Source: a virus. From it: a DNA stretch of 64,000 nt. Both the position numbers and the translations under genes were made by a program. The stretch is from the UHGV virus genome UHGV-1375844. The stretch is one strand, 5' to 3'. How positions within the stretch are numbered: position 1 is the stretch's first letter; each line of letters opens with the position of its first letter. The notes beneath the pieces are model-generated. The model made no database searches. It was not told the DNA's origin and saw only the letters and a program-made list of their open reading frames with translations. Below, piece after piece: positions 6,937-46,119 of this stretch.

Positions 6937-6990
6937 CCTGCTTCCGTATAAATAATAATAAGTAACTTAGTATTTATATACAGAAGCAGG
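6937..6990. repeat. long inverted repeat H1 (18-20 bp arms)
   Basis: CCTGCTTCCGTATAAATA ... TATTTATATACAGAAGCAGG; loop carries a motif-A-like palindrome; near-identical copy at 40995..41049. Confidence 0.7.
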
Positions 6991-8052: not shown

Positions 8053-8412
8053 TTAGCCTTTCTTCATCAGCTCGCGCTTGATCTCGTCTGTGCGCATCGT
8101 GACGTCAGCAGCGGTGATCGCCTCGTTCAGTTTCACAATGTCCTCGATTTCCTGCGGCGACTTCTCTGCCAGATGGTAAATGGCTGCACGAATCACGTCA
8201 GAACGGGTGAACTTCTCAAAGCGAGGGATGAATTTCATCATCTCCAGCAGATCGAAGTATTCGTCCTCCAGCGACATGGTACGGCTCTTTATTTTCTCTT
8301 TCCCACGAGTCGGGCGGCCCTGTGGTCTGACTGGCTGGCGCAACGGCGTGCTGTTTTTGGCCGGAGCATCCGGTTCTTTGCGCTTGGCAAGGTCTCCCAT
8401 CTTCATGGACAT
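8053..8412 (-). CDS. ParG-like ribbon-helix-helix partition protein (putative centromere-binding)
   Basis: Basic disordered N-terminus then RHH-like segment (KSRTMSL / EDEYFDLLEMM / RSDVIRAAIYHLAE); immediately downstream of ParA-like gene. Confidence 0.5.
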   Translation of the reverse strand: MSMKMGDLAKRKEPDAPAKNSTPLRQPVRPQGRPTRGKEKIKSRTMSLEDEYFDLLEMMKFIPRFEKFTRSDVIRAAIYHLAEKSPQEIEDIVKLNEAITAADVTMRTDEIKRELMKKG

Positions 8413-9077
8413 TACTCTTCCTCCAGACTCAAGATATAATCAACAAACTGTTCAAACTCGGCTTCTGCCTTCTTGTCGCGTTCGGCGCCAGTCATTTCAA
8501 AGATAGAGCGACCAGCCTCTTCTGCATCATCGTAAACGTTACGGTTGTACAAATTGACCGGTGCAGCTTCGATACCAAACGTCTCAACGATTTCTTTGGC
8601 GGCCAGAATACGCGACACCTGGGAAGGTAGTGACGGGCACTGGTTGATAACGGCACGTATTTTCACCTTCTCGTTCACATTGCGTACATTGTCGATAATC
8701 GGGTCGATGTCGCGCAGCGATTTCAGGTCACGACGTTTAGGGCGCAGCGGTATGACGATAACATCAGCCATCAGCATAGCTTGTCGCTGGATTTCGGAGT
8801 CGAAGCCCCCTGCGTCTACAACCACGTAATCGAAGCGCCCCTGAAGCGATTTGAGATGCTTAACGACGTCTTCCTGAACGTAAGCGAAAGGAATGAGATC
8901 GAGATCTTCATTCTGTCGACGGTCTTCGCACCAGCTGGTAGTGGTGCGCTGGATGTCGATGTCGGTAACTTGGATTTTCTTTTTCTTTTTGACTTTCAGG
9001 CAAACCGCTATTTGCTGGGCAACGGTCGATTTACCCGGGCCACCCTTCGTGCCGCCAACCACAATGATCCTAGTCAT
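8412..9077 (-). CDS. ParA/ParF-family partition ATPase
   Basis: Deviant Walker A GGTKGGPGKST, 221 aa. Confidence 0.8.
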   Translation of the reverse strand: MTRIIVVGGTKGGPGKSTVAQQIAVCLKVKKKKKIQVTDIDIQRTTTSWCEDRRQNEDLDLIPFAYVQEDVVKHLKSLQGRFDYVVVDAGGFDSEIQRQAMLMADVIVIPLRPKRRDLKSLRDIDPIIDNVRNVNEKVKIRAVINQCPSLPSQVSRILAAKEIVETFGIEAAPVNLYNRNVYDDAEEAGRSIFEMTGAERDKKAEAEFEQFVDYILSLEEE

Positions 9078-9111
9078 TGAATAGTTCCCTTTGCGTGAAT
9101 TATTGTCGTAT

Positions 9112-9130
9112 GAAACAACTTGTTTTCTTA
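9112..9130. promoter_or_regulatory. motif B copy upstream of ParA-like gene
   Basis: GAAACAACTTGTTTTCTTA followed by TATGCGATAT. Confidence 0.45.
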
Positions 9131-9272
9131 TATGCGATATAGCCTAAATGCCTACGGCTGCGGTGTAAAGGTGAAATGGTAGGTATTATCGAGATAGAGA
9201 GGGTCTTGAGATTAAGAATGAGAAGAGGTAAACAACTTTTGGCGAGAAGGCGGCACATAGCCGCCAGACTGT

Positions 9273-10022
9273 TTATTTAGTGTATAGGCCGACAGGTGCT
9301 CTTGAGCAACGAGAGATGATTAGAACAATGAACTTCTGTACATTGACCTGAACTTTGTTAGGCAGCCATGAACTGAGTTCGGGATCGAGCAGTAACCCAC
9401 GATTCCAAGGTAAAAAACCCGTGTTCTTGCCCATGCCGTATTCACCCAGCACGTCCTCGAACGTTTCTGTTTTGGCATTGTATATACGCACATCGCCGGT
9501 ACGCATGAGAGGGCCAGCCCAGATCTTAGCGCCAGGAATGGTTTGTTTATCGTCGCAGACTAAATGCTCGTACCAATGAAGAAGGAAAAGATAGGTACGG
9601 TGACACAATCCTCGCTGACGAAGCGCTCTGACGGTTTCGACCCCTGCTACCTGGTAACAGTCAATCTCGTTGCCGTCTTCAATAAAACTATATCCACGCA
9701 GAGCTATCCTGCCGGCGATCGTGTTTTTGCTTTCGTCCAGCAGTCCGGACTGGAGCGCCTCTTTGATGATCTCTTCTTCAGGGGCATCTTCATCAGCTCG
9801 ATCTAAGATAAATTCACTCAGGTCGCCCTGGTCGTGCGCGCCGACTCGCTCCATAGAGACATACAGGCAAATGTCATCTTCTGGCTCGATGATTTCAATT
9901 TCTGAGATTTTATAGAGGGAGGCTTCGTTGATGAGAAAGCCAAAACGAGCAACACGAGTCTCCCCTTGATGAGGAAACTCGCTTAGATCTTTTGAATATG
10001 CGGTATCTAGTGTAGGAGCCAT
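9273..10022 (-). CDS. hypothetical protein (249 aa)
   Basis: Long ORF; no recognisable motif. Confidence 0.5.
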   Translation of the reverse strand: MAPTLDTAYSKDLSEFPHQGETRVARFGFLINEASLYKISEIEIIEPEDDICLYVSMERVGAHDQGDLSEFILDRADEDAPEEEIIKEALQSGLLDESKNTIAGRIALRGYSFIEDGNEIDCYQVAGVETVRALRQRGLCHRTYLFLLHWYEHLVCDDKQTIPGAKIWAGPLMRTGDVRIYNAKTETFEDVLGEYGMGKNTGFLPWNRGLLLDPELSSWLPNKVQVNVQKFIVLIISRCSRAPVGLYTK

Positions 10023-10390
10023 CTTGTAGCAGAGTCATCAGCCTTAACCGTACTGACAATGCTACCATGATTACGTAAGAAGCGGCGAATAGAATGTTCA
10101 ATAACCTCCGAAAAAGCCTCGATAAAACGAGACAGCTCAGGGTACTGTTTGGCTGGCTTCACTACAAAACGAACACGACCATTCAGGTAAATTGCTTCAG
10201 CCAACGGTTTCACGCTTGCACCGGCGCGCTCGACATCGTCTTTAAAGGTAACGATGAAGCGTGAGTCTTCAGGTTCAATAGCGTCGTTATTGAGCTTACG
10301 TACTTCGAGCTTGTGCTGATGCAGCACATGAGTCTCGATAATACTCGTGCAATCGCGAATAGTTTGTATAGAACGTTTCTCGTTCAGCAT
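10007..10390 (-). CDS. hypothetical protein (127 aa)
   Basis: ORF overlapping downstream gene by 16 nt. Confidence 0.45.
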   Translation of the reverse strand: MLNEKRSIQTIRDCTSIIETHVLHQHKLEVRKLNNDAIEPEDSRFIVTFKDDVERAGASVKPLAEAIYLNGRVRFVVKPAKQYPELSRFIEAFSEVIEHSIRRFLRNHGSIVSTVKADDSATRWLLH

Positions 10391-10576
10391 GTGTCCACCT
10401 TAGCCGTTAACACAAGTGTCATTGCGGCACCCCTTCCGGGGTTAAAGGCTACGAGTATGCGTAGCTTGTATGTGTCCCACTTACGTGGATGCCTAATAAA
10501 TCTACATCAAATTGCTAAATGGTTCAACATGAGGTTGCGTGAACAGGCGTGTATACGGGTGAAGATGCCATCTTTA

Positions 10577-10618
10577 GGATAAAAGGTAAATTGGAGGCGC
10601 CACATAATTTCTGGCGCC
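10577..10618 (-). terminator. intrinsic terminator after lysis cassette
   Basis: GGCGCC-loop-GGCGCC stem followed on the minus strand by CCTTTTAT. Confidence 0.45.
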
Positions 10619-10632
10619 CATAAATCACCAAC

Positions 10633-10860
10633 TCAGCTCCGGTGCTCCCACTTACACAACCTTTCACCTATCGTATTGTGGATAAGCAGCTGTCGCTCTG
10701 TTTCCTCGGTCATAAAATCCTCTCTACTCACATAGATAGGATTTGCGGCATCGCAGAATTGTACGCCCAAGGTCTGGGGTTTAATCACGCATCCACTTAT
10801 CGCGAAGCTCGCGATGAATGGCAGAAGCATCCTTAGCCCTGACTTCATTAATCGTTTCAT
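10633..10860 (-). CDS. outer-membrane lipoprotein, o-spanin-like
   Basis: Signal peptide with lipobox (FAISGC); 5' end embedded out of frame in the i-spanin gene. Confidence 0.55.
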   Translation of the reverse strand: MKRLMKSGLRMLLPFIASFAISGCVIKPQTLGVQFCDAANPIYVSREDFMTEETERQLLIHNTIGERLCKWEHRS

Positions 10861-11032
10861 TTTTCACATCCACTGTGTTCTGAAGCCGTTTCCTGTCGTC
10901 TTGCCGCGCCTTTTCTTCCATTGCTTGCCGCGCCGCACGACCACCCATCGTATAGGCGCCTGCAAGCACTAAAAGAACGGCAGCCGCGGTAATCAGAGCA
11001 ATCTTTAGCTTCGAAAATAGGCTGCCGAACAT
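10781..11032 (-). CDS. i-spanin-like protein
   Basis: ORF trimmed to MFGSLFSKLKIALITAAAVLLVLAGAY (N-terminal TM) then charged coiled region. Confidence 0.5.
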   Translation of the reverse strand: MFGSLFSKLKIALITAAAVLLVLAGAYTMGGRAARQAMEEKARQDDRKRLQNTVDVKNETINEVRAKDASAIHRELRDKWMRD

Positions 11033-11033
11033 A

Positions 11034-11726
11034 TCAGACGATTCCTTTCTGATGCTTTCTGACCTGCGACCAGGCAATGAAGCCGGCCACGACGATAGTT
11101 GCGATCCCGAAGACGATGCGGATCGTGTCACCGCTGGTAATGTGGCCCTGTGCCTTGTCCATTGCCACCGATACCTGTGGCATGACATCGGCCAGCTGCG
11201 CCAGGCCAATACCTGCCGTAACGGTCGCACCGGCAGTCTCTTTGGTAACGGGAACAGCTTTTACAGTCTTTACCGGTTTGACAATGCCGGCACGTCGCAG
11301 ACCTTCTTCGATAAGCTCGGATGCATACCAGGTATTTGGTGTTTTCAGCGGACCTCGACCATTTTCGTGTCTGATGATCGCCTCTACCAGCGGTCTTAGG
11401 GTCTCGTAGTCATGTAAATCGATCACCATGTCCGGCGTGACACCAACAGCTTTGGCCACCTCATTCACGTAAGCCACAGTGTTGTTCTCATGTGGAGGCG
11501 CCCAGCGCTCAATAACTTCGCGGATCGTGTCGATGCTTGAGCCGTCTTTGGCTCGACGTTTGTCATGGTAGGTGATGAGCGTAACTGCCAATGCGCGAAT
11601 CCCCCATACGGGATCTTTGAAAGTGCAGAAGCGCGGTTCTGAAGGGTTGTCGACTAAGCCCTGCCACGGCGAACCTTTATCAAGATTGCCAGGGTTGTTG
11701 TTGCGAATACCTCTTGGAGTTTTCAT
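11034..11726 (-). CDS. putative cell-wall hydrolase / endolysin (by position), C-terminal TM helix
   Basis: 230 aa between holin-like gene and spanins; RNNNPGN motif near N-terminus; catalytic family not identified. Confidence 0.4.
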   Translation of the reverse strand: MKTPRGIRNNNPGNLDKGSPWQGLVDNPSEPRFCTFKDPVWGIRALAVTLITYHDKRRAKDGSSIDTIREVIERWAPPHENNTVAYVNEVAKAVGVTPDMVIDLHDYETLRPLVEAIIRHENGRGPLKTPNTWYASELIEEGLRRAGIVKPVKTVKAVPVTKETAGATVTAGIGLAQLADVMPQVSVAMDKAQGHITSGDTIRIVFGIATIVVAGFIAWSQVRKHQKGIV

Positions 11727-11737
11727 CCTTGATCTCC

Positions 11738-12073
11738 TTATTGCAGTCCATTTTTAACGCCGTAAGCGGCCAGCCCCAACAGCAGTACGGTAATCAGGAA
11801 CGACGTAATCTTTGAGACAATGCCGCCAAAAAACCCGCTGGAGATGGAGTCGAGCCGATTAAGAAGTTTGTCCAGATTTGAATGCTGGATGCTGTGTTGT
11901 GCCGGGGTCATATCGCCAAAGTAGGTCTTGAGCTGATCGTTAACTTCCTGACCAATCTCCTCGCGCAGTTCTTTGCCCAATTTGCCGACTACCTCGCGGG
12001 CAACAATCGCGGCAATGCGCTCTACCTGCTCTGGCGTTACGCCTGCCATCTCGTTCGACATTATTTCCTCCAT
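11738..12073 (-). CDS. putative holin / membrane protein
   Basis: 111 aa with C-terminal TM helix (ITSFLITVLLLGLAAYGV); first gene of presumed lysis cassette. Confidence 0.4.
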   Translation of the reverse strand: MEEIMSNEMAGVTPEQVERIAAIVAREVVGKLGKELREEIGQEVNDQLKTYFGDMTPAQHSIQHSNLDKLLNRLDSISSGFFGGIVSKITSFLITVLLLGLAAYGVKNGLQ

Positions 12074-12124
12074 GAAAAGTCAAATCGGGATGGCAGGGTT
12101 ATAACACATTAGCAAACAATTTTG

Positions 12125-12143
12125 TAGGTAAGCACTTACTTAT
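12125..12143. promoter_or_regulatory. motif A palindrome copy
   Basis: TAGGTAAGCACTTACTTAT between Gly-rich gene stop and holin-like gene. Confidence 0.45.
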
Positions 12144-12151
12144 TAATGCAT

Positions 12152-12976
12152 TTAAACACGGGTGCCATGAATTGTGCCAACCGTCACCCACGTTGGGGCA
12201 TTACCATTAACAGCAGCGCCACCAGCCCCACCTGCATACGGGGTGATATTCTTCCCCCCTCCAGACTGCGAAGCAGCTGCACCAGCGGAACCCAAGTCAC
12301 CACCTTTCCCGCCAACAGATGTTCCAAGGCTTGTGGAGGTATTCCCTGCACCTGGAGCCGTAAGCGAAGCATTGCTGCCGTTGCCACCGCCGCCGCTGGG
12401 GTAGGTTTTTGTACCACCGACGCCAAATGGTCGCCCGCCGCCGCCGCCTGAATAAGTTGGTTTATTATTACCAGCCCCAACAGCGCCGCCGCCTCCACCA
12501 CCGCCTCCAATAATGCCGTTATTTTGGATGCGCAGTTTGCTTCCGATGGCATTGGTGATCGCAGGACCGCCCGGCTTACCTTTGTTGGCATCGCCGTTTC
12601 CTCCACCGCCGCCATTTCCCCCACGGCCAAGCACCATTTGTCCCGAGTTAATCACAAGCAAGATATAAGCGCAGCTGGCAAGCTCGCTTGTAAAATTGAG
12701 ACAGGGCGCACTGGCAGAACTCGACACAATGGTACCGGTGATGTTGACTCTGATGGCGTTGTCCTTCACGCCTAAAGACTTAATCTGATTGACTAGAGTA
12801 GACCAGGAATAGTTGTTGTTCGCTGAAACATTGATGACCTGCTCTCTGGACTTGCCTACCAGGGTTTTCATCCAGAAAGGGGCGCCAACCCGTACAGATC
12901 TGCCGGCAGCTGACATCCATCGTTGCCCAGTCTCACTTACTGCGGAGGAGCCAACCCATCCGGAGTTGATGGTCAT
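12152..12976 (-). CDS. glycine-rich putative tail fibre / receptor-binding protein
   Basis: Start trimmed to MTINSGWVGSSAVS; N-terminal ~45 aa paralogous to 14410..14967; C-terminus is poly-Gly rich. Confidence 0.5.
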   Translation of the reverse strand: MTINSGWVGSSAVSETGQRWMSAAGRSVRVGAPFWMKTLVGKSREQVINVSANNNYSWSTLVNQIKSLGVKDNAIRVNITGTIVSSSASAPCLNFTSELASCAYILLVINSGQMVLGRGGNGGGGGNGDANKGKPGGPAITNAIGSKLRIQNNGIIGGGGGGGGAVGAGNNKPTYSGGGGGRPFGVGGTKTYPSGGGGNGSNASLTAPGAGNTSTSLGTSVGGKGGDLGSAGAAASQSGGGKNITPYAGGAGGAAVNGNAPTWVTVGTIHGTRV

Positions 12977-13227
12977 TTTCTCATCTCCTTGAGTTCCATA
13001 ACCTCTTTTTCGACGCTTTAACAGCTTCGACCATAATCCCAATGATACCGTTACATTTCAGACGAAGGCGTTCTTCTCCTGAATGGTCGTTTTTATCGGC
13101 TGTAACCAGCTCTGGTTGCAACTTTTACATCTCGGGCGGTCAAGCTACCCGCCATCTTGCCCGACATCATTTCCTTAATGAAAGTCAGTTCAGATGGCAG
13201 GTAATACTATACTTTTTTTACCGGTCT

Positions 13228-13247
13228 ATAGGTAAGCACTTACCTAT
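13228..13247. promoter_or_regulatory. motif A palindrome copy
   Basis: ATAGGTAAGCACTTACCTAT just downstream of lipoprotein gene stop. Confidence 0.45.
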
Positions 13248-13261
13248 ATAACAAGCTAATT

Positions 13262-13507
13262 TTAGGATTTTGGGCAGTTGATGGAGGTGAACGCCCCTTG
13301 CCCCACCCAACGCCAGTTAAAAATACTCCCGGCCCGATAAAGCGTATACTTACCTTCTTTCTTGATCGCATAAATTGGCACACTCGTTGACGAACCGCCA
13401 ACCATTGCCTTCCCATAGCAAACAGGCTCTGGTAATTTTTGACAGGCGCTCAATGTAAGTGTTACGCCTAGTAATAAAACTAATTTCTTCATTTTATATT
13501 CCATCAT
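13262..13507 (-). CDS. lipoprotein (candidate superinfection-exclusion / receptor-masking protein)
   Basis: Signal peptide plus lipobox LSAC; located inside the RBP-like cluster; AT-rich; start overlaps upstream stop. Confidence 0.5.
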   Translation of the reverse strand: MMEYKMKKLVLLLGVTLTLSACQKLPEPVCYGKAMVGGSSTSVPIYAIKKEGKYTLYRAGSIFNWRWVGQGAFTSINCPKS

Positions 13508-14112
13508 CCGTAGAGATTTCTGTTTAAGACTGGAACTCGGTTGTTGATAGCAAGGCTCGCCCCTCCATTAATTTCATTAACAAGGATAGAACTCACGGTA
13601 TTTCCGTAGCATGTGTAGCCGTAAACCAGCGTCTTAGCGCCACCCGGCATTGGAATAGCAAAGGCGTTAGCGTAAGTTGGCACAACCGCTACCGGATAAT
13701 TGAATACGTGCTTATCATTACTGTTCCAGCTATTATTATCAAGAAATGTGAAAGACAGTGGGATATTTGCCGTGTTATAGATCTCAACCCCTGAAGAATT
13801 GAAAAAACTCATTCCCCATTTTTCTTTTCTGGTTATGCCCGTAGCGAAAACATACACAGTTACGTTTGAATCACTCCCACGTCCACCGAAGCTGTAAATA
13901 ACCTGGTTATTGCGAACTATACGATTCGCAAGCAGTGAAACAGCTTTTGTATACGCCACGAAGACCATAGGGGACCGATCAGGAGATAGTCCCGTATTGA
14001 ACTCGCTCCCCCCTTTCAGTGAGACAACATGTTTGCTCTGGAAAACCAGAGGCGTAAGGCTTGGAGACATCCAGACCTTTCCATCAGATCGAACGATTTT
14101 GCTTCCGTACAT
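13504..14112 (-). CDS. hypothetical tail-fibre-associated protein (202 aa)
   Basis: AT-rich ORF coupled to neighbours by overlapping stop/start. Confidence 0.45.
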   Translation of the reverse strand: MYGSKIVRSDGKVWMSPSLTPLVFQSKHVVSLKGGSEFNTGLSPDRSPMVFVAYTKAVSLLANRIVRNNQVIYSFGGRGSDSNVTVYVFATGITRKEKWGMSFFNSSGVEIYNTANIPLSFTFLDNNSWNSNDKHVFNYPVAVVPTYANAFAIPMPGGAKTLVYGYTCYGNTVSSILVNEINGGASLAINNRVPVLNRNLYG

Positions 14113-38963: not shown

Positions 38964-38983
38964 ATAGGTAAGCACTTACTTAT
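38964..38983. promoter_or_regulatory. motif A palindrome copy
   Basis: ATAGGTAAGCACTTACTTAT spans terminase large subunit stop; AGGAGA RBS and portal ATG follow. Confidence 0.5.
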
Positions 38984-40242
38984 CTTGATCCGCCAAGAAT
39001 AACACGATTTTTAACCGGATACCTACGATGAACTGGATAACCTAATGCATCCGCGCTGTGCTCAATGCCACCACTCTTATCCATATCCCGTGAGCCAGGT
39101 TTATAAATTACTTTTTCAAGCGAATCGATAAGGTGTTTGCATTTCGGGTCGATATAAAGCCGCGTTTCGCCAGATGCGCTTAACAGCATACGGTTTACGG
39201 CATTCACACGATCCGCTATTGGCGGGTGCTTCTTCGGAAAATCAACCCGTAGAAAACCCTTTTCCTTAAAAATGTCTACGTCTGACTCACCACGAGCGTG
39301 CTGACGATACGCGCCGGCAGGGTCGGGGAAAATGGTCACATGTGATTTCCATCGCCAGTAACGGCGCTCCAGCTCATCACACACTTCTGCCGTGTTGGAT
39401 GAGAAAAGCACCAACTCGTCAACCGCCCACAACTCGCCATTTGGCTGTGGCTGGAGAATGACAGAAGACATCGGATCGATGTTGAAGTCCTGACCAACCC
39501 AGATCGGCAGCTTTGGATTGAACTGCAACGGCTTCACATGCACGCTTCGGTCGAAAGGATAGTAAACACGACCGGACATGTTTTCGAAGCTGGCCAGGTA
39601 CTCCTGAGCGAACGACTTAGGGTCCATATCATTCTTCGCGGCTTCGATTTCAGCGGTCGGAACAAACGGAGAGTCAGCAGTAACAAACTGCCAGCTCTTC
39701 CACTGGCCTTTACGCTGTAGCTCTTTGTTCTGGCCGATCGTCCACAGCTTATGGAACTCAGAGAAGCCTTTCGGCGTACCGATGATCAGCGCCCCGCCCC
39801 GGGTGGATGACAACGTCGGTCGAAGAACCTTATACCAGGTGTCCGGCTTCATATCCTGAAACTCGTCGAGTACCACGAAGTGAAGCGCAACACCACGGAG
39901 CGTATCGGGCTTATCGGCGCCTTTGAGCGCGATCTCAGAGCCGTTCTTCAGCACGATTGTCATCGTGGTATCGTTTTTCTTACGAATCCATTTCCGGGGT
40001 AAAACTTCCTGCAGGTCATCCCACAAAATCTGGCGTGCCATCTGATAAGTCGGCGCGACATACCAGACACGTTGTTTTTTCTCTTTGGCCGCGGCTCGGA
40101 TAATGGTGGAAATCGACAACCGGGATTTACCCCAGCGTCGACCCGCACATACCACCTTGAATCGATGTGGCGACTGGAAGACTTTCATCTGTCCAGAATG
40201 CAGCTGTACGAGACTCAGAGACGACGGGATGCTCATAATCAA
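38980..40242 (-). CDS. terminase large subunit
   Basis: Walker A CAGRRWGKS, Walker B VVLDEFQ, 420 aa. Confidence 0.85.
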   Translation of the reverse strand: MIMSIPSSLSLVQLHSGQMKVFQSPHRFKVVCAGRRWGKSRLSISTIIRAAAKEKKQRVWYVAPTYQMARQILWDDLQEVLPRKWIRKKNDTTMTIVLKNGSEIALKGADKPDTLRGVALHFVVLDEFQDMKPDTWYKVLRPTLSSTRGGALIIGTPKGFSEFHKLWTIGQNKELQRKGQWKSWQFVTADSPFVPTAEIEAAKNDMDPKSFAQEYLASFENMSGRVYYPFDRSVHVKPLQFNPKLPIWVGQDFNIDPMSSVILQPQPNGELWAVDELVLFSSNTAEVCDELERRYWRWKSHVTIFPDPAGAYRQHARGESDVDIFKEKGFLRVDFPKKHPPIADRVNAVNRMLLSASGETRLYIDPKCKHLIDSLEKVIYKPGSRDMDKSGGIEHSADALGYPVHRRYPVKNRVILGGSR

Positions 40243-40880
40243 ACACTCCCATCACTTTCATCGTCCGACGCGTCAGAATCGATTTCAGCTTCGCTCAGCG
40301 CTTCCTCTTCCAGCGACTCAAGCAGTTCATCATCGATCAACTCAGGCTCATCGTCTTCCTTACGCAGCTGCGCAACCTGTGAAGGTGTAAGTTCGCCAAA
40401 CACCAGGTTCGGAATTTCATCTTCCTCATTTTCGGCGCGATCCATGCCGAGCGCTTTCGAAGAGATTTCGAAGCACTTGGCCAGTGTGCCGCTGGCTCGC
40501 TGGAGACTTTTAAGGTCATCTTCTATAGCTGCGAGAGGTCTGCCATCCTTTTTGGCAGTGGCAACTTCGTGCATGACCATGCGCCCGAGTGCAAACGCCC
40601 AATCGTCGTAGCGAGTACGCCGCTCTTCAATTTTGTCTGCTCTCGCTTTGGCACGAAGCTCCGCATCGGATTTGAGCGATTCGCGAACCATCTTTCCAAC
40701 AGAGTCAGCGCCCTTCTCTAATCCACGCTTTTTGAAATGTCTGGAGAGCGTTTCACGACGAATGCCGTACTCTTCCTCCAGTTTTGAGAGCGTATACTCG
40801 CCTGAAGTCCACTTCGCTTCGGCTTCTGCCCACTCAGCTGGCGTCAGGCGAGTTTTGGTCTCGTCTTTTTCTACCGTCAT
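40239..40880 (-). CDS. terminase small subunit
   Basis: 213 aa with N-terminal HTH-like segment and acidic C-terminus; overlaps large-subunit start by 4 nt. Confidence 0.6.
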   Translation of the reverse strand: MTVEKDETKTRLTPAEWAEAEAKWTSGEYTLSKLEEEYGIRRETLSRHFKKRGLEKGADSVGKMVRESLKSDAELRAKARADKIEERRTRYDDWAFALGRMVMHEVATAKKDGRPLAAIEDDLKSLQRASGTLAKCFEISSKALGMDRAENEEDEIPNLVFGELTPSQVAQLRKEDDEPELIDDELLESLEEEALSEAEIDSDASDDESDGSV

Positions 40881-40920
40881 AGATCCCTCTAAAACACGCA
40901 GAGCGCATCCTTGCGCCCTC

Positions 40921-40965
40921 TAAACAATTTGTTTAAATCTCTGTCTAACCAATTTGTTTTCTGGG
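40921..40965. promoter_or_regulatory. motif B copies (two half-elements) upstream of terminase small subunit
   Basis: TAAACAATTTGTTTAAA and AACCAATTTGTTTTCTGG. Confidence 0.45.
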
Positions 40966-40994
40966 TGGTTTATCAAAACTTGAGAGTTGCAGAA

Positions 40995-41049
40995 CCTGCT
41001 TCCGTATATAATTAATAAGTGACTTAATATTTATTTATACGGAAGCAGG
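40995..41049. repeat. long inverted repeat H2 (about 20 bp arms)
   Basis: CCTGCTTCCGTATATAA ... TTATACGGAAGCAGG; arms nearly identical to H1 at 6937..6990. Confidence 0.7.
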
Positions 41050-41074
41050 CTCCACATCTGACTCCCAGACCTGC

Positions 41075-41341
41075 TTACATCACCAGTAACTTGGCCCTTG
41101 CTCGACCCAATGCAGTCAGCCCCAGCGTGCGGCGGTGATAGCCTGAATCCCCGCGCTGCCGACACATTCCCTTCTCCACCAGCCCCTTTTTCACCAGTGC
41201 GCGGATAGAGAACTGCATACTCTGCTTGGTCGTTTTGTACGGCAGGACTTCAAGCAGCTCGTCCAGATCAAGCAGATTCCCTCGCTCGTGCCCTAAATTG
41301 ATGGTTTTAATGATGTCTTTCTGTTTGTCGGTCAAAGTCAT
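41075..41341 (-). CDS. small winged-helix-like DNA-binding protein
   Basis: 88 aa basic protein; last gene of the coupled operon. Confidence 0.4.
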   Translation of the reverse strand: MTLTDKQKDIIKTINLGHERGNLLDLDELLEVLPYKTTKQSMQFSIRALVKKGLVEKGMCRQRGDSGYHRRTLGLTALGRARAKLLVM

Positions 41342-41350
41342 GGCAAATCC

Positions 41351-42250
41351 TTATGCCGGTAAAGCAATTTCAAGTGGTTTATCCAAAGGCTGTTTGTCGA
41401 ACGCCAGCAGCGGCAGAGTTTCTGGCAACGAGCGACCAAAATCCGGGTTGCGGTACACCCCATATAACGGTGAGGTGAAGCTCAGGTTATGAATATCTTT
41501 GAGTAGCTTCACGATGCTGGCTTCATCCACCAGGCTGTCGGCAATATCCTGAATGGTAGTGCCTCGGTTACGCCCGGCTTTGGCCAGTGAACTGTTCTTG
41601 TGGTAGTCGGCAACCAGATCACGCAGCGCACGACGACGGCGAGATTCGCTCATGGCGAACAGCTCTTTGACGATCGCTTCGTTGTCGCCAGGGTCGGAAC
41701 GAAAATGACGCTGGAAGACGCGCAGCGCACTCTCATAGCTCTTCGGACGCTCCGGACGGATGAACTGGAACCCTGCTTTCATGGCGAACGGGTTGTATTT
41801 GCTCATCGATGACTGGATCTCGATGATTGGCCGGTCATGCATCCTGCTAACCAGGTTAATCATTCGATAGGAGACGCCGACACCGCGATACTGCGTATCC
41901 ACTACAGAACGGCTGATCACTGCAAAGTTATTGTTCACGTACCGGCCCCAATACTGGTTGGCCACAGTGGTATTGGTCGTTGGCTTCAGCTTAGGAAACA
42001 TGCGATGGCGAGGTGCCAGTAGAAGTTTCGGATAGGCCATGACCACGACGCCCACCAGCCGGCCGTCCAGCTCGCAGCGATAATACGTGGGCGCGAACGG
42101 TTTACCGTCCGTCTTGTAGTGCAGCGACTTCAGCGCGTGCCAGTCTTCAACAGTGCCTTTGGATACGGTCATTCGTTCCAGAAAGTCCAGATGCCGCGGG
42201 AACTCTTCCGGACGGTAGCGTTTGATGATGATGTCTGCCATGTCGATCAC
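41351..42250 (-). CDS. GNAT-like fold protein (tentative)
   Basis: 299 aa; segment AVISRSVVDTQYRGVGVSYRMINLV resembles GNAT motif A. Confidence 0.35.
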   Translation of the reverse strand: MIDMADIIIKRYRPEEFPRHLDFLERMTVSKGTVEDWHALKSLHYKTDGKPFAPTYYRCELDGRLVGVVVMAYPKLLLAPRHRMFPKLKPTTNTTVANQYWGRYVNNNFAVISRSVVDTQYRGVGVSYRMINLVSRMHDRPIIEIQSSMSKYNPFAMKAGFQFIRPERPKSYESALRVFQRHFRSDPGDNEAIVKELFAMSESRRRRALRDLVADYHKNSSLAKAGRNRGTTIQDIADSLVDEASIVKLLKDIHNLSFTSPLYGVYRNPDFGRSLPETLPLLAFDKQPLDKPLEIALPA

Positions 42251-42501
42251 CTGCGCTCGATATTGGCATTAATGAAATCCAGGCGAAGAGATTCCATCGC
42301 TCCCACCATGACATACGGGCGCCCGCCGTTATGCCAGCAATCAAGAACACTGCCGTCATTGTTGATCATCAGCAGCGCCAGGCTCTGGCTTTTGCCTTCT
42401 CTGGCGTACTGAAGTGCTTCTTCCAGCAGGCGGATGACTTCAACGTTATTGTTGTCAGCCTCTTTCGATGGCTTCAGCTCTACGATCTTCAAATCAGGCA
42501 T
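42247..42501 (-). CDS. hypothetical protein (84 aa)
   Basis: Coupled by overlaps to both neighbours. Confidence 0.4.
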   Translation of the reverse strand: MPDLKIVELKPSKEADNNNVEVIRLLEEALQYAREGKSQSLALLMINNDGSVLDCWHNGGRPYVMVGAMESLRLDFINANIERR

Positions 42502-43132
42502 ATTCCACCTTCACGCGTTCTTTGTAGTGCTTGGTGATCTGCATATCCGGCCGCAGGGCGTTCTTCAGATCTTCGTGTGTCGTCGCCACCATTACCGTCG
42601 CGCCAACCTTACGAGCGGCACGCTGGAGGTTCGACGCAACAACCTGAGCGGTTACACGGTCGAGTACGGCACCAAATTCGTCGGCCGCCCACACTTTCGC
42701 GCCGGACTCGATTAGCTTGGCGATTTTGAGACGGTATTTCTGGCCGTCAGACATTTCGGATGGCTTGCGCACAAAGAGATAGGCGTCATTCAATCCGGCC
42801 ATAGACAACAGCCCCAGCGCTTCGCTGGTGGTTTTGCCCAGCTGGTCGATGACGTTAACCTCATTGTCGAAAGCAAAATCATCGATTGAGGCCACAGAAA
42901 GACCTTCATCCTTCATCTGGCGTTGCAGCTCGCGCAGCACAACGGATTTGCCTGAACCGGATTGTCCGGTGATGTACACAACATCACCCTGCTTCACTTC
43001 CAGCTCCAGATTGTCGTAAAGCGTCCACTCTTTTTCGTCCAGACCAAGACCGAACGATTCGGCAATTTCCAGCGTTCGCGTGGTTTTGTTCACGCGGGTC
43101 TGGAACGACACGTTGATGGTGTACTTACTCAT
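42494..43132 (-). CDS. ABC-type ATPase, nucleotide-binding domain only
   Basis: Walker A GQSGSGKS, signature-like MSDGQKYRL, Walker B VWAADEFG, H-loop ATTHED; 212 aa, no membrane domain. Confidence 0.65.
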   Translation of the reverse strand: MSKYTINVSFQTRVNKTTRTLEIAESFGLGLDEKEWTLYDNLELEVKQGDVVYITGQSGSGKSVVLRELQRQMKDEGLSVASIDDFAFDNEVNVIDQLGKTTSEALGLLSMAGLNDAYLFVRKPSEMSDGQKYRLKIAKLIESGAKVWAADEFGAVLDRVTAQVVASNLQRAARKVGATVMVATTHEDLKNALRPDMQITKHYKERVKVEYA

Positions 43133-43830
43133 GCAGCCAGCTCCCCGGAGGACACTTTCTCCGCATACGCCACGAAAGCGTTCACCCCGCGCTCTCCCGT
43201 GATTTCTTCCATGTGGGCGAGCAAATCCCCAACCACAATGGCAGAGCCAGCAGGAAGCGTTTTAAAGCCCAATACGTCGATGACACGGACTTCTTCAGCG
43301 GCCACTTCGCGACTGATCTCGGTGTGCTCTTCTTTCTGGCGTTCCGTCTCTTCGCCCAGATCGAGCACCAGAGAGCCGGTTTCCATCTCTTCGGTCATGC
43401 TGCCGACAAGCACATTCAGTTCACGCTCTTCAAAACCGAAGACCTCGACGTCGCCCAGCACCAGGGATTCCAGTTCCTGCTGCAATTTGATGGCGTCGTA
43501 ATCGATACTGGCAAGGCGGTTGTCTTCCAGACGCTTCGCCTTCACCTCTTCTTCATTCAGATCGTCGCGAACAATGACCGGCACACGCTCCAGACCAGCC
43601 AGAAGCGCCGCCTCGCGACGACCATGACCAGTAATGATGACGCCGTTCTTGTCGATCGTGATCGGCTGGTCAAAACCGCGCTTTTTGATGGCGGCAGCCA
43701 GATCGCGGATCTGCTGTTCATCATGTTTTTTGGCGTTCATCTCATACGGGATGAGTTCAGCCGGGTTTCGATAGACGATTTCAAAGTTCTTGGTCATTAC
43801 ATACGCTCCTTGTAGTAGTCGACCAGCCAC
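43129..43830 (-). CDS. ParB-like nuclease-domain protein
   Basis: ParB/Srx-like N-terminal region (ITGHGRREAALLAGLERVPVIV), acidic C-terminus. Confidence 0.55.
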   Translation of the reverse strand: MAGRLLQGAYVMTKNFEIVYRNPAELIPYEMNAKKHDEQQIRDLAAAIKKRGFDQPITIDKNGVIITGHGRREAALLAGLERVPVIVRDDLNEEEVKAKRLEDNRLASIDYDAIKLQQELESLVLGDVEVFGFEERELNVLVGSMTEEMETGSLVLDLGEETERQKEEHTEISREVAAEEVRVIDVLGFKTLPAGSAIVVGDLLAHMEEITGERGVNAFVAYAEKVSSGELAA

Positions 43831-44495
43831 ACCAGGGCTTCCCCGGCGTTCTCCATTTCGTTACCGGTGTTGATCCCCTGCTCTTTGATGATGGTTTTGA
43901 TGGTGTCGGCGACGCGATCTGACGCATCAAACGTCACTTTGAAGCGCATCGTCTGGTGTTCTGCGCCAACACGCTCCGTTTTCTCGCGGCGATCGTCGTC
44001 AGCTGGCTCATCATCGCCGCGGGAAAGCGCTTCCAGCGCTTCGAGATCAATGGCAGAGGCTTTGGCAAGGGTGGCCGCCATTTCATCGTCATAGGGGGCA
44101 ATATCGGAAAGCCGGTAGTCGATTTCAGACTGGATTTCTTCGATCAGTCGCTGCAAAGCGATCTGATCGTCTTCGCCGTAACGTTCGTTATCGACAAGTG
44201 ACATCTGCTTGGCCACCAGGTCGTTGATTTTGCCAACCGAGATGACAGGAACAGTCGAAATTCCCTGCTCTATCGCAGCCCGCCAGCGATGTTCGCCGCC
44301 GAGGATCTGGAAAGTGCCACCGTCCAGCTCACGGGCCAAAATTGGCTTAAAAAAGCCCAGCTTCTCGATAGAACCTTTCAGTTTTTCGAAGTTTTGCGCC
44401 CCCACCGAGTTGGTGTTCCAGGGATTCGGACACAGTTTCGCAACTTCAACCTGCAAAATCGTAATTTTCACATCCATTTTCTTGATACAATCCAT
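43797..44495 (-). CDS. ParB-like nuclease-domain protein
   Basis: Classic ParB box GGEHRWRAA; first gene of operon. Confidence 0.65.
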   Translation of the reverse strand: MDCIKKMDVKITILQVEVAKLCPNPWNTNSVGAQNFEKLKGSIEKLGFFKPILARELDGGTFQILGGEHRWRAAIEQGISTVPVISVGKINDLVAKQMSLVDNERYGEDDQIALQRLIEEIQSEIDYRLSDIAPYDDEMAATLAKASAIDLEALEALSRGDDEPADDDRREKTERVGAEHQTMRFKVTFDASDRVADTIKTIIKEQGINTGNEMENAGEALVWLVDYYKERM

Positions 44496-44497
44496 TG

Positions 44498-44514
44498 TAT
44501 AAGTACTTACTTAT
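44498..44514. promoter_or_regulatory. motif A palindrome copy in divergent control region
   Basis: TATAAGTACTTACTTAT between minus-strand operon start (44495) and plus-strand helicase (44560). Confidence 0.45.
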
Positions 44515-44559
44515 TATAATAGCCAATTAACACACAAAAGGCACGAAGGAAAGAGGTTT

Positions 44560-46119
44560 ATGACAGTTCGTATTGTATCGAATGCCGTCAATGCACTTAT
44601 TTCGGGTGCAGATGACAATGTAAAAAGGCTCGTTCAGGAAATGTTGAGCTACGAAGTAGAGGCTGGTGACTGGAAAGGCACCAGCACGATGTTCAACTGG
44701 AGCAAAAATGCGTTCCCGGCCGGCTTCGCCAAGCCAGTGGCAGCCAACCTTCTCAAAGCGGGCATCAAATGCGTCCACGTTCGTAAGGATAAAGCGACGC
44801 CGCTTGGCAAGCCTAATCCAGTCGTTAATCCGTTTCCGTACAACCCAGACTATGCCTATCAAGATCAGACTGTCGAAACGCTCGTTCGCGAGGGGATGAT
44901 GATCGCGCAAATTGCGACAGGGGGCGGGAAGTCTAACGTAGCGTGTAAAGCAGCAGCACGTATTGGGCGAATGACGTTGTTTTTAACCACGCGTTCTGTT
45001 TTGATGTTCCAGATGGCTGAAAATTTCCAAAAATCTATCGATTATCGAGCTGAAAACGGAGAACCGTGGCTTAAAGGCCAGAAGGTGGGCGTAATAGGAT
45101 CTGGTCAGTGTCAGGTTTCACGCCATATCAACGTCGCAACGGTGCAAACCCTGGCCAGCTTCCTTGAAGAACCGCCACGCGATGCTTCACCGGAAAAGAG
45201 GAATCACCACCTTAGACGTCAGGGGCTTGTTAAGCGGTTCCTTTCCAGCGTTTCCCTCCTGATTCTGGAAGAAGCCCACGAATCATCAGGCTCCAATTTC
45301 TACGATATAGCGCGGTTATGCATTAATGCTGATTATCGACTGGCTCTGACAGCTACACCGTTCATGAAGGATTCGACGGAAGCGAACATGCGTCTCATGG
45401 CAGTGGCCGGGCGAATTGAGATCAAAGTCACCGAAAAATACTTGATCGACCGAGGTATTTTAGCAAAGCCCTACTTTCTTTATCATAAGATCTCGTACAC
45501 TCCGGATGAGGTACGAATCCGGGCCGAACTAGCTTCAAAACATCTCAATTTCAGGGTCGGAATGAGCACTGCGTATCAGAAAGCCTATCAATTAGGTATT
45601 GTCTACAATCTGGCTCGCAACGAAGCCATTGTGCGTGAGGCGCTCATGTACAAAAGCCACGGCCTGAACTGTATGACACTGGTGCGTCTGAAAAGGCATG
45701 GACAGATCCTGATGGAAATGATGAGAGAGAGCGGCCTTAACGTCGACTTTATCTATGGGGAGTCAAATCAGTCTACCCGGCAAGCCAAACTGAGCAGCTT
45801 AGCGGCAGGCAAGATAGACGTTTTGATTGGCTCAACCATACTGGATGTAGGCGTCGACGTTCCTAGCGTCGGGGCGGTAATTCTGGGTGGTGGAGGAAAG
45901 GCCGAAGTTGAAATGCGTCAGCGCGTAGGACGTGGCCTTCGAGCCAAAAAAAATCAGGCGAATGTGTGTTTTGTTACCGACTTCATCGATGTGAGCAACA
46001 AATATCTCATGTCGCACTCATATGAACGGAAAAACATCATCGACACTACGCCTGGGTTTGCCGAGGGCGTATTGCCAGTGGGTAGCACCTTCGATTTTAC
46101 TGTTTTAAATAGAGAGTAA
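44560..46119 (+). CDS. superfamily 2 DNA/RNA helicase (DEAH-box)
   Basis: Walker A ATGGGKS, motif II LEEAHE, motif VI QRVGRGLR. Confidence 0.75.
   Translation: MTVRIVSNAVNALISGADDNVKRLVQEMLSYEVEAGDWKGTSTMFNWSKNAFPAGFAKPVAANLLKAGIKCVHVRKDKATPLGKPNPVVNPFPYNPDYAYQDQTVETLVREGMMIAQIATGGGKSNVACKAAARIGRMTLFLTTRSVLMFQMAENFQKSIDYRAENGEPWLKGQKVGVIGSGQCQVSRHINVATVQTLASFLEEPPRDASPEKRNHHLRRQGLVKRFLSSVSLLILEEAHESSGSNFYDIARLCINADYRLALTATPFMKDSTEANMRLMAVAGRIEIKVTEKYLIDRGILAKPYFLYHKISYTPDEVRIRAELASKHLNFRVGMSTAYQKAYQLGIVYNLARNEAIVREALMYKSHGLNCMTLVRLKRHGQILMEMMRESGLNVDFIYGESNQSTRQAKLSSLAAGKIDVLIGSTILDVGVDVPSVGAVILGGGGKAEVEMRQRVGRGLRAKKNQANVCFVTDFIDVSNKYLMSHSYERKNIIDTTPGFAEGVLPVGSTFDFTVLNRE

Follow-up and report, generated by a model that had tools for sequence, protein, structure and literature searches.

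The combination of a GNAT acyltransferase with an ABC ATPase has been predicted to act as a system for the acyl modification of DNA bases, with Tenacibaculum phage pT24 given as an example (Iyer et al. 2021, PMC7824862, citing Iyer et al. 2013, NAR 41:7635). Mom is a GNAT-fold enzyme that modifies double-stranded DNA (dsDNA) late in infection (PMC13219725). Activation of DNA thymine dioxygenases requires phage proteins that are ParB-like but have no DNA-binding domain, and ParB and terminase domains often co-occur in the phage 5mYOX clusters (bioRxiv 10.1101/2025.08.14.668559); DpdB, in turn, is the ParB-like ATPase of the Dpd DNA-modification system (PMC12839542). Finally, ASCH proteins serve as N4-acylcytosine amidohydrolases or as erasers of N4-acetylcytidine (ac4C) (PMC6972931; bioRxiv 10.64898/2026.02.27.708502). 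The subject of this analysis is an operon at positions 41075-44495 (minus strand) of the virus genome UHGV-1375844, analysed as one stretch of 64,000 nt (referred to as the window), in which two ParB-like genes precede separate genes for an ABC ATPase and a GNAT protein, just upstream of the terminase genes.

With a probability of about one half, this operon would encode a late-expressed, ParB-guided, ATP-driven and acyl-CoA-dependent DNA base acylation system. A preliminary description of the locus could not assign it to any known phage module, but its ABC and GNAT proteins are homologous to fused ABC-GNAT proteins, including that of pT24, which matched both our ABC profile (E 5e-25) and our fused-family profile (E 3e-41). 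The module is thus not categorically new, but a split-gene, ParB-duplicated and clade-fixed version of a widespread phage module for which DNA base acylation was predicted in silico.

The ParB-ABC-GNAT operon and its proteins

The element in the window is an SSU5-like phage-plasmid, the operon region being 92% identical in nucleotide sequence to SSU5_125-130 of Salmonella phage SSU5 and 83-85% identical to the corresponding region of E. coli and Klebsiella phage-plasmids. The 299-aa gene recurred at 100% identity on one IMG/VR contig of 106.8 kb. The six minus-strand open reading frames (ORFs) reported earlier for positions 41075-44495 were all recovered, and they form the start of a minus-strand array of ca. 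44 kb that continues with the TerS-like, TerL, portal, capsid and tail genes. The genes of the operon and its immediate neighbours are as follows:

43797-44495, minus strand: ParB-A, ParB/Srx N-domain protein of 232 aa with an acidic middle region (Pfam, PHROG and PDB matches)
43129-43797, minus strand: ParB-B, paralogous ParB/Srx N-domain protein of 222 aa from ATG 43797 (Pfam, PHROG and PADLOC matches)
42494-43132, minus strand: stand-alone soluble ABC ATPase of 212 aa (Pfam ABC_tran, catalytic motifs)
42247-42501, minus strand: accessory ORF of 84 aa in a variable slot between ABC and GNAT genes (phrog_796, function not annotated)
41351-42250, minus strand: GNAT-fold acyltransferase of 296-299 aa with a helical insert of ca. 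90 aa; likely start ATG 42241
41075-41341, minus strand: basic protein of 88 aa, probable winged-helix DNA binder (phrog_900; PADLOC match, conserved motif)
40239-40880, minus strand: TerS-like DNA-binding protein of 213 aa, a neighbour outside the module (phrog_867, 2e-105)
38980-40242, minus strand: terminase large subunit (TerL), a conserved neighbour (Pfam Terminase_6N, 1.4e-9)
44560-46119, plus strand: UvsW/DEAD-type SF2 helicase, divergent from ParB-A (Pfam DEAD/ResIII/Helicase_C)

Reading of the junctions agreed with the earlier view of one compact, co-oriented unit held together by overlaps or a 9-nt gap. ParB-A and ParB-B share 1 nt (TAATG), provided that ParB-B starts at ATG 43797, which carries an AAGGAG Shine-Dalgarno sequence (the alternative from the ORF list is the GTG at 43830). 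ParB-B and the ABC gene overlap by 4 nt (ATGA) and the ABC gene and the 84-aa ORF by 8 nt, after which the GNAT gene follows either in a GTGA overlap or, more likely, after a 5-nt gap to ATG 42241, a start with an AGGTGA Shine-Dalgarno sequence that yields a 296-aa protein matching the SSU5 annotation and one homologue. The gap between the GNAT and 88-aa genes is 9 nt. Overlapping plus-strand ORFs (e.g. 42962-43501 and 43213-43815) were rejected as genes, being antisense shadows of conserved coding sequence that had no family support. In none of the six operon proteins was a membrane segment found (no 19-residue window above 1.5 on the Kyte-Doolittle scale), and because the operon offers the ABC protein no membrane partner, its neighbours being ParB, GNAT and terminase genes, this protein is not a transporter.

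The ABC protein passed the Pfam PF00005 ABC_tran model (4.9e-13), and its Walker A (GQSGSGKS), Q-loop (IDQ), signature (MSDGQ), Walker B (VWAADEF) and H-loop (TTHED) motifs are all conserved among orthologues. It is homologous to the N-terminal half of the fused ABC-GNAT proteins, and phrog_11143 spans both the ABC and the GNAT protein. The 299-aa protein has the GNAT fold, and its version of the acyl-CoA pyrophosphate-binding motif A (R/Q-x-x-G-x-G/A), namely R122-G-V-G125-V-S, is invariant in 28 diverse homologues and predicts CoA binding; the counterpart in the fused family reads YRGIGLG. Its top structural match in BFVD was a Mom protein. Judged by the features that define the Mom family (sequence membership, the R111/S124 active site and tRNA-dependent chemistry), this GNAT protein is not a member of it.

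Both the GNAT and the 88-aa protein are basic. Searches of Pfam, NCBIfam and PADLOC returned nothing specific for the 84-aa, 299-aa and 88-aa proteins, and sequence searches of the PDB with the latter two were uninformative, their AlkD matches (E 1.3) being dismissed as noise. The 88-aa protein carries a conserved, helix-wing-like Y.TTKQS.QFS.R.L.K.GL motif, and its gene follows the GNAT gene in 15 of 31 related loci (tblastn), with a small ORF occupying the same slot at some of the loci that lack a match. The earlier call of a winged-helix protein gained support from a PADLOC match to a CARF-wHTH C-terminus (E 1.9e-4) and from the basic composition; the winged helix as such is unproven, and a role as winged-helix DNA binder is plausible from these features.

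ParB-A and ParB-B both exceeded the gathering score (26.3) of the Pfam PF02195 ParB_N model, at 50.7 bits (E 1.9e-13) and 33.8 bits (E 3.5e-8) respectively, and aligned with each other at 33% identity over 104 aa (E 3e-8), which confirms the proposed pair of paralogous ParB/Srx-fold proteins. ParB-A matched phrog_723 (6.6e-84). ParB-B matched phrog_930 (4e-114), the N-terminus of the 'DNA methyltransferase' family phrog_498 (8.7e-33) and PADLOC MTase_II (5e-19), its closest relative being the ParB domain in phage ParB-methyltransferase fusions. In a sequence search of the PDB, both proteins matched the N-domains of ParB, Spo0J, Noc and KorB. The GxxRxxA and (E/D)NxxR boxes, predicted to bind nucleotide, are present as GGEHRWRAA and DNERYG in ParB-A and as GHGRREAA and EDNR in ParB-B. 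The GGEHRWRAA box had been called canonical; it is indeed found in the ParB-A of the window, but only its GGxHR part is kept across orthologues, where PNPWNTN, FKP and DNxRYGxDD are likewise invariant and a RFKV...NAGDAL segment is conserved at the C-terminus. Conserved motifs of ParB-B are PYExNAK.H and GHGRR.

Neither ParB protein matched a helix-turn-helix (HTH) family, and the segment that aligns with the HTH of Spo0J is acidic rather than basic. The operon also contains no ParA gene, an adjacent ParA and a central HTH being the marks of a ParABS partition system. A ParA-like gene was confirmed at 8412-9077, 33 kb from the operon (its 214-aa neighbour had no ParB_N match), in agreement with the earlier statement that the operon is not the partition system.

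Relatives, clade conservation and flanking DNA

A search of 1.84 billion representative proteins with a GNAT profile returned 995 relatives. Many of these are 450-500 aa long, with the GNAT-like part beginning at about residue 200 and a Pfam ABC domain ahead of it. Since the consensus of 36 fusions with N-terminal ABC and C-terminal GNAT parts reproduces the motifs of both window proteins, the ABC and GNAT proteins of the window represent the split form of an ABC-GNAT protein. The fused architecture is that of COG2401 ('ABC-type ATPase fused to a predicted acetyltransferase domain'), a designation already in use in JGI and Cyrano annotations. Among these relatives, a 1260-aa PolB_exo-PolB-ABC-GNAT fusion was read on 24 contigs of an uncultured virus (gene 10001-13783, loci L117-L119) that also encodes Prim-Pol, RecA and an SbcC-like gene, and in other relatives the ABC-GNAT gene lies one gene downstream of PolB. 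A DNA polymerase as fusion partner suggests that the substrate is DNA. One homologue carries a LAGLIDADG intein within its ABC domain, and a thaumarchaeal form ends in a C-terminal TFIIB repeat.

The fused form is encoded on at least 574 IMG/VR contigs, and neighbourhoods were read at 76 loci with an intact ABC-GNAT ORF. In 45 of the 76, an ORF of at least 400 aa on the same strand ends no more than 200 nt upstream of the ABC-GNAT gene, and 22 of these 45 junctions are either a 4-nt overlap or a 7-nt gap. Terminase_6N was detected in 40 of the 47 upstream ORFs that were scanned (the 45 less duplicates, plus 7 lying somewhat further upstream). Moreover, in at least 16 IMG/VR loci (in the range L125-L204) the fused gene directly follows TerL as the last gene of the predicted viral region, so that the packaging operon with ABC-GNAT lies at a prophage edge, like mom at the end of Mu. 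Host metabolic genes were seen after ABC-GNAT in loci L123 and L124. A ParB-like gene near a TerL-linked fusion was encountered in one case only, so that ParB is a frequent rather than a universal partner.

A homologue of the fusion of Rhodococcus phage Jace was present in 80 isolated phage genomes, and the following neighbourhoods were recorded:

Gordonia phage NHagos, left genome end (L206, 1-4139): ParB-like (gp1), ABC-GNAT (gp2), formyltransferase, terminase, portal
Rhodococcus phage Jace (L205, 3471-6236): ParB-like (gp85), ABC-GNAT (gp86), aspartate decarboxylase, CoA-transferase fragment
Arthrobacter phage EastWest: ParB-like (gp74), ABC-GNAT (gp75)
Burkholderia Mu-like phage phiE255 (L212, 3956-5688): ABC-GNAT, formyltransferase, placed after tail-fibre genes
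Streptococcus prophage 315.4 (L210, 4492-7020) and phage MismyG (L211, 3989-6488): ParB_N, ABC, GNAT, ASCH, TerS-like, TerL, portal

With the streptococcal order, the gene arrangement of the window reappears in a phage of Firmicutes. The annotation of 315.4 gives the GNAT part just as an 89-aa fragment in a frame differing from that of the ABC gene, and a two-piece ABC/GNAT match was also seen in many Javan prophages; the two-piece form could reflect a frameshift, a decayed gene or recoding. The enzymes adjacent to ABC-GNAT in Jace, NHagos and phiE255 hint that the acyl group may differ by phage, being perhaps β-alanyl in some and formylated in others. Sporadic neighbours of ABC-GNAT included an amidoligase, a radical-SAM/SPASM protein, PAPS reductase and PadR-type winged-helix proteins.

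Closer to the window, the 299-aa protein had 490 homologues at E<=1e-3 in a large protein collection, and contigs of ca. 100-115 kb encode many of these. For comparison of gene order we used 30 loci from one-genome-per-species bacterial assemblies (alpha-, beta- and gammaproteobacteria) together with one Ectothiorhodospira contig. Wherever the contigs reach, the order is constant: the divergent helicase, ParB-A, ParB-B, ABC, a variable gap, GNAT, in some cases a small ORF, the TerS-like gene and TerL. The TerS-like gene stands between module and TerL at all clade loci, the helicase is always divergent from ParB-A, and an identical gene order was found in the lytic phages Pseudomonas nickie, Rhizobium RHph_N1_15 and Xanthomonas JGB6. 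In distant loci, identity to the window protein amounts to 54-62% for TerL, 53-64% for the ABC protein, 37-46% for GNAT, 31-44% for the ParB proteins and 25-36% for TerS. The ranges for the ABC ATPase and TerL match, and the ABC ATPase is thus as constrained as the packaging motor. A scan of viral contigs with the GNAT alignment yielded near-identical SSU5-like loci only, and the wider diversity was drawn from bacterial genome contigs and from the fused family.

The 84-aa ORF is restricted to close relatives of SSU5 and is absent from Cyrano, Xenorhabdus and all distant loci. Elsewhere in the clade the gap between ABC and GNAT holds small ORFs of the Phage_gp49_66, RyR-domain or DUF2829 type, or none in the case of Cyrano; outside the window this slot was read at 8961-9999 in locus L003, 5052-5907 in L115 and 5646-5981 in L114. 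As this ORF is variable and unrelated ORFs fill its slot, the clade-wide unit is a core of five genes with an insertion hot spot. The set first described as six genes must accordingly be reduced to five, the 84-aa ORF falling outside the conserved unit; co-occurrence in related genomes, which had been proposed as a test of the unit, proved strongly conserved and did not refute it.

Some peculiarities of individual records were seen among these loci. The TerL genes of Xenorhabdus hominickii, Novosphingobium and Chelativorans (L088 at ca. 11330-12267, L097 at ca. 10927-12389 and L103 at ca. 11560-12882) carry in-frame insertions of ca. 0.9-1.4 kb that start with Cys after P-loop or Walker-B-like motifs (e.g. 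RRFGK/CIVEGT... and GADKPD/CFDDETDILTVDG..., the slash marking the start of the insert), and from these boundaries they look like inteins. Copies of the region that are 90-97% identical occur on contigs binned in Firmicutes metagenome-assembled genomes ('Bacillota bacterium', 'Candidatus Fimivivens'), most likely through binning error. In the records of Xanthomonas phage JGB6 and the Halomonas sulfidaeris chromosome, all module, terminase and capsid genes are frameshifted, which has the look of errors left behind by long-read assembly and not of a biological feature, even if modified bases, too, can impair nanopore base-calling.

The DNA flanking the operon contains three elements:

44496-44559, no strand: divergent control region between ParB-A and the helicase, with the palindrome TAAGTACTTA at 44500-44509
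40985-41059, no strand: long inverted repeat between the 88-aa gene and TerS, a candidate operon terminator and/or cos/pac site
40900-40959, no strand: two AAAC(A/C)AATTTGTTT palindromes, 25 nt apart, followed by a GC hairpin and a T-run, directly upstream of the TerS start

The palindrome of the divergent region and the inverted repeat before TerS are the two elements said earlier to bracket the operon, and both were found. A sigma-70 scan of 44496-44559 revealed no consensus promoter. The inverted repeat has arms of 24 nt (40985-41008 and 41036-41059) and an AT-rich loop containing TAAGTGACTTA; folded as a single-stranded DNA hairpin it reaches -21.4 kcal/mol (z -6.45 vs shuffled sequence), and its Rfam matches to miRNA hairpins were rejected as spurious. 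The repeat is kept in SSU5, where the ends of the linear GenBank record join inside the loop (...TAAGTGACTTATTA followed by AATATATACGGAAGCAGG...). Because the record ends meet there, the repeat is a candidate cos/pac site or terminator, and this position suggests that it marks the end of the virion DNA, unless the start of the SSU5 record is arbitrary. Such a location is compatible with acylation and with packaging alike. The AAAC(A/C)AATTTGTTT palindromes and the hairpin behind them are likewise present in SSU5; they may serve as a binding site for a regulator or as an attenuator. Related palindromes were further noted at 6959-6969 (TAAGTAACTTA, upstream of the ParA-like-gene region), at 41016-41026 (TAAGTGACTTA, in the loop of the inverted repeat) and at 44500-44509 (TAAGTACTTA, in the divergent promoter region), that is 3 in 64 kb vs ca. 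0.04 expected by chance; these may be operators of one regulator.

Proposed mechanism and rival explanations

The genes present, their folds and motifs, their relationship to fused ABC-GNAT proteins and the conserved neighbourhoods were established directly, and on this basis we infer a DNA substrate, an acyl donor, a ParB heterodimer, a timing and a benefit. The two ParB/Srx paralogues, with their ParB_N domain, acidic linker and small C-terminal domain, would form an NTP-dependent heterodimeric DNA clamp or loader that tethers the enzyme to replicated phage DNA and activates it. A heterodimer is suggested because both copies are conserved, and phages with a single ParB would use a homodimer. 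A soluble ABC dimer would then spend ATP on gripping or opening the duplex in order to expose a base, by analogy with the ATPase of TmcA, and the GNAT protein would move an acyl group from acyl-CoA (probably acetyl-CoA here) onto the exocyclic amine of that nucleobase, with the 88-aa basic protein as a possible DNA-binding accessory or regulator. Expression would take place at the head of the late array of packaging and structural genes, and the modified DNA would be packaged and shielded from host nucleases in the next infection.

A DNA-directed acyltransferase is the simplest account of the PolB fusion, the coupling to ParB, the donor-making or tailoring enzymes, the ASCH genes and the placement ahead of packaging taken together. 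In particular, the aspartate decarboxylase, CoA-transferase, formyltransferase and ASCH neighbours, as putative donor-making or tailoring enzymes, support acylation. A narrower and distinctly tentative version is that the module writes N4-acyl (e.g. N4-acetyl) deoxycytidine or another N-acyl base in a TmcA-like manner, guided by a ParB CTP clamp; it comes from the ASCH genes that follow the module in streptococci and from the donor-making enzymes in Jace.

Several points weigh against DNA acylation. No chemistry has been demonstrated for any ABC-GNAT member, and a literature search gave no experimental follow-up of the prediction; the searchable literature, which is limited, likewise yielded no account of DNA modification in the SSU5-like, Nickievirus or RHEph10-like phages. 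The version in the window comes without a donor-synthesis or reader gene, and in structure its GNAT protein resembles Mom no more closely than it resembles generic GNATs. An AlphaFold model of ParB-A, built on a shallow alignment, reached a pLDDT of 38.8 and is unusable for ParB domain architecture (all matches in the ParB-A homologue search were 86-94% identical). Finally, DNA-modification genes are usually patchy, whereas this is a strictly conserved, terminase-adjacent core, a pattern that packaging would fit equally well.

The rival that draws on the same genomic position is a packaging accessory, in which the ParB proteins would recognise the packaging site, taken to be the inverted repeat beside TerS, or spread from it, the ABC protein would be a Rad50/SMC-type clamp that holds DNA ends or bridges DNA and so readies concatemers for the terminase, and the GNAT would regulate or acetylate a packaging protein. 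We regard this as unlikely, yet it stays a live rival because linkage to the terminase was met with in three or more unrelated arrangements. All clade members have the module fixed directly ahead of TerS/TerL, the fused gene directly follows TerL in most other viral loci (the 40 of 47 upstream ORFs with Terminase_6N), and NHagos and the streptococcal phages have the module just before their terminase genes as well. The TerL-like conservation of the ABC protein and the ends of the SSU5 record within the repeat loop just downstream of the operon argue in the same direction. Our literature search returned no mapping of packaging sites for the SSU5-like, Nickievirus or RHEph10-like phages. However, linkage to the terminase is also typical of late DNA-modification genes, as in the 5mYOX clusters with ParB and terminase, and a packaging role leaves unexplained the PolB fusions, the aspartate decarboxylase/CoA-transferase, formyltransferase and ASCH neighbours, and the Mom-like site after the tail fibres in phiE255. 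The intact acyl-CoA motif favours catalysis over scaffolding, and no known terminase accessory family matched.

Acyl transfer could also be directed at protein or RNA, with the ABC-GNAT pair acetylating a protein of host or phage (e.g. RNA polymerase, as phage Rac does, or a ribosomal protein) or a tRNA, so that host machinery is redirected late in infection, and the ParB proteins acting separately as late-operon transcription regulators in the manner of KorB/VirB-like CTP switches. RNA polymerase is a known target of phage GNATs (PMC7824862), ribosomes are where ABC proteins of the ABC-F type act, an ATPase is paired with a GNAT on tRNA in TmcA (PMC13219725), and the operon heads the late genes beside possible operator palindromes. 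We consider this explanation rather improbable, as the recurrence of ABC-GNAT beside ParB/Srx proteins in unrelated phages and its fusion to PolB are hard to reconcile with it, and the translational coupling of the ParB genes to the ABC gene suggests that their products work in one complex. Very unlikely, in our estimate, is a variable anti-defence cassette, which would use acetylation to disable an immune protein of the host or a signalling nucleotide. The position at a transcription-unit boundary with inserted small ORFs would suit such a cassette, and records of Porphyromonas phages label neighbours 'acr candidate'. On the other hand, PADLOC returned no specific defence or anti-defence family, but only generic ABC matches (mad3/mad8, PtuA) and the ParB domain of the methyltransferase system MTase_II; the core genes are invariant over alpha-, beta- and gammaproteobacterial phages, which is not the behaviour of variable cargo; and the operon genes are absent from the list of genes expressed in the Cyrano lysogen (LF82/Cyrano paper). 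Among the candidate roles floated in the preliminary description, the DNA-modification pathway is thus the one backed by comparative genomics and the literature, whereas the usual variable anti-defence module fits poorly.

If DNA acylation is correct, SSU5-like phage-plasmids, some of which carry resistance genes in Klebsiella, E. coli and Salmonella, would encode a DNA-acylating complex. The known base modifications of DNA would then gain a new kind, Mom would be joined by a second family of GNATs that modify DNA, and ParB-type NTPases would be seen for a third time as cofactors of DNA-modifying enzymes. It would also explain the 'ParB-like nuclease / ABC transporter' genes found before the terminase in many streptococcal, lactococcal and actinobacterial phages, and would bear on restriction evasion, transduction of resistance plasmids and sequencing artefacts. 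Should the N4-acyl version hold, a new enzymatic class of DNA modification would be present in phage-plasmids common in clinical Enterobacteriaceae, with the fused form in streptococcal, lactococcal, actinobacterial and archaeal viruses. If the module is a packaging factor instead, terminase accessories would gain a new type. Since SSU5, Cyrano and similar inducible elements grow in hosts open to genetic work, this decade-old in-silico prediction becomes testable there.

Comparison with described systems

With the CTP clamps ParB, KorB and Noc, including ParB of ParABS, the two ParB-like proteins share the ParB_N fold with its GxxR and (E/D)NxR boxes; they differ in that the operon has neither a ParA partner nor a detectable HTH and in that the function is not partition. 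A closer likeness is offered by the 5mYOX-ParB and DpdA/DpdB pairs, where a ParB/Srx NTPase-type protein without the partition HTH likewise accompanies a DNA-modifying enzyme, often near the terminase, and where the catalytic residues vary in a similar manner (Q to N in box I, and E to H in the GxxR box). The partner in the window is ABC plus GNAT instead of a dioxygenase or transglycosylase, and there are two ParB proteins instead of one.

TmcA/NAT10, which forms ac4C in RNA, resembles the proposed enzyme as an NTPase joined to a GNAT that acylates the exocyclic amine of a nucleobase with acetyl-CoA (PMC13219725), and the ASCH neighbours in streptococci recall the ac4C amidohydrolases. In contrast to TmcA/NAT10, the ATPase here is of the ABC type rather than RecD-like and helicase-type, there is no DUF1726 or tRNA-binding domain, and the presumed substrate is DNA. 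Mom of phage Mu, acting on adenine N6 in dsDNA, has in common with the window protein a GNAT fold with an extra helical insert and, in the proposed scheme, a late modification before packaging; the ABC-GNAT gene of phiE255 moreover follows the tail-fibre genes, as mom does in Mu.

The nearest described system remains the predicted ABC-GNAT system, with which the operon shares homologous domains in the same N-to-C order, the match to pT24 and the distribution over phages. It departs from that system in that ABC and GNAT are encoded apart, on either side of an insertion slot, with two ParB/Srx paralogues ahead of them, a small basic protein behind, and a fixed place upstream of TerS as a core kept throughout the clade.

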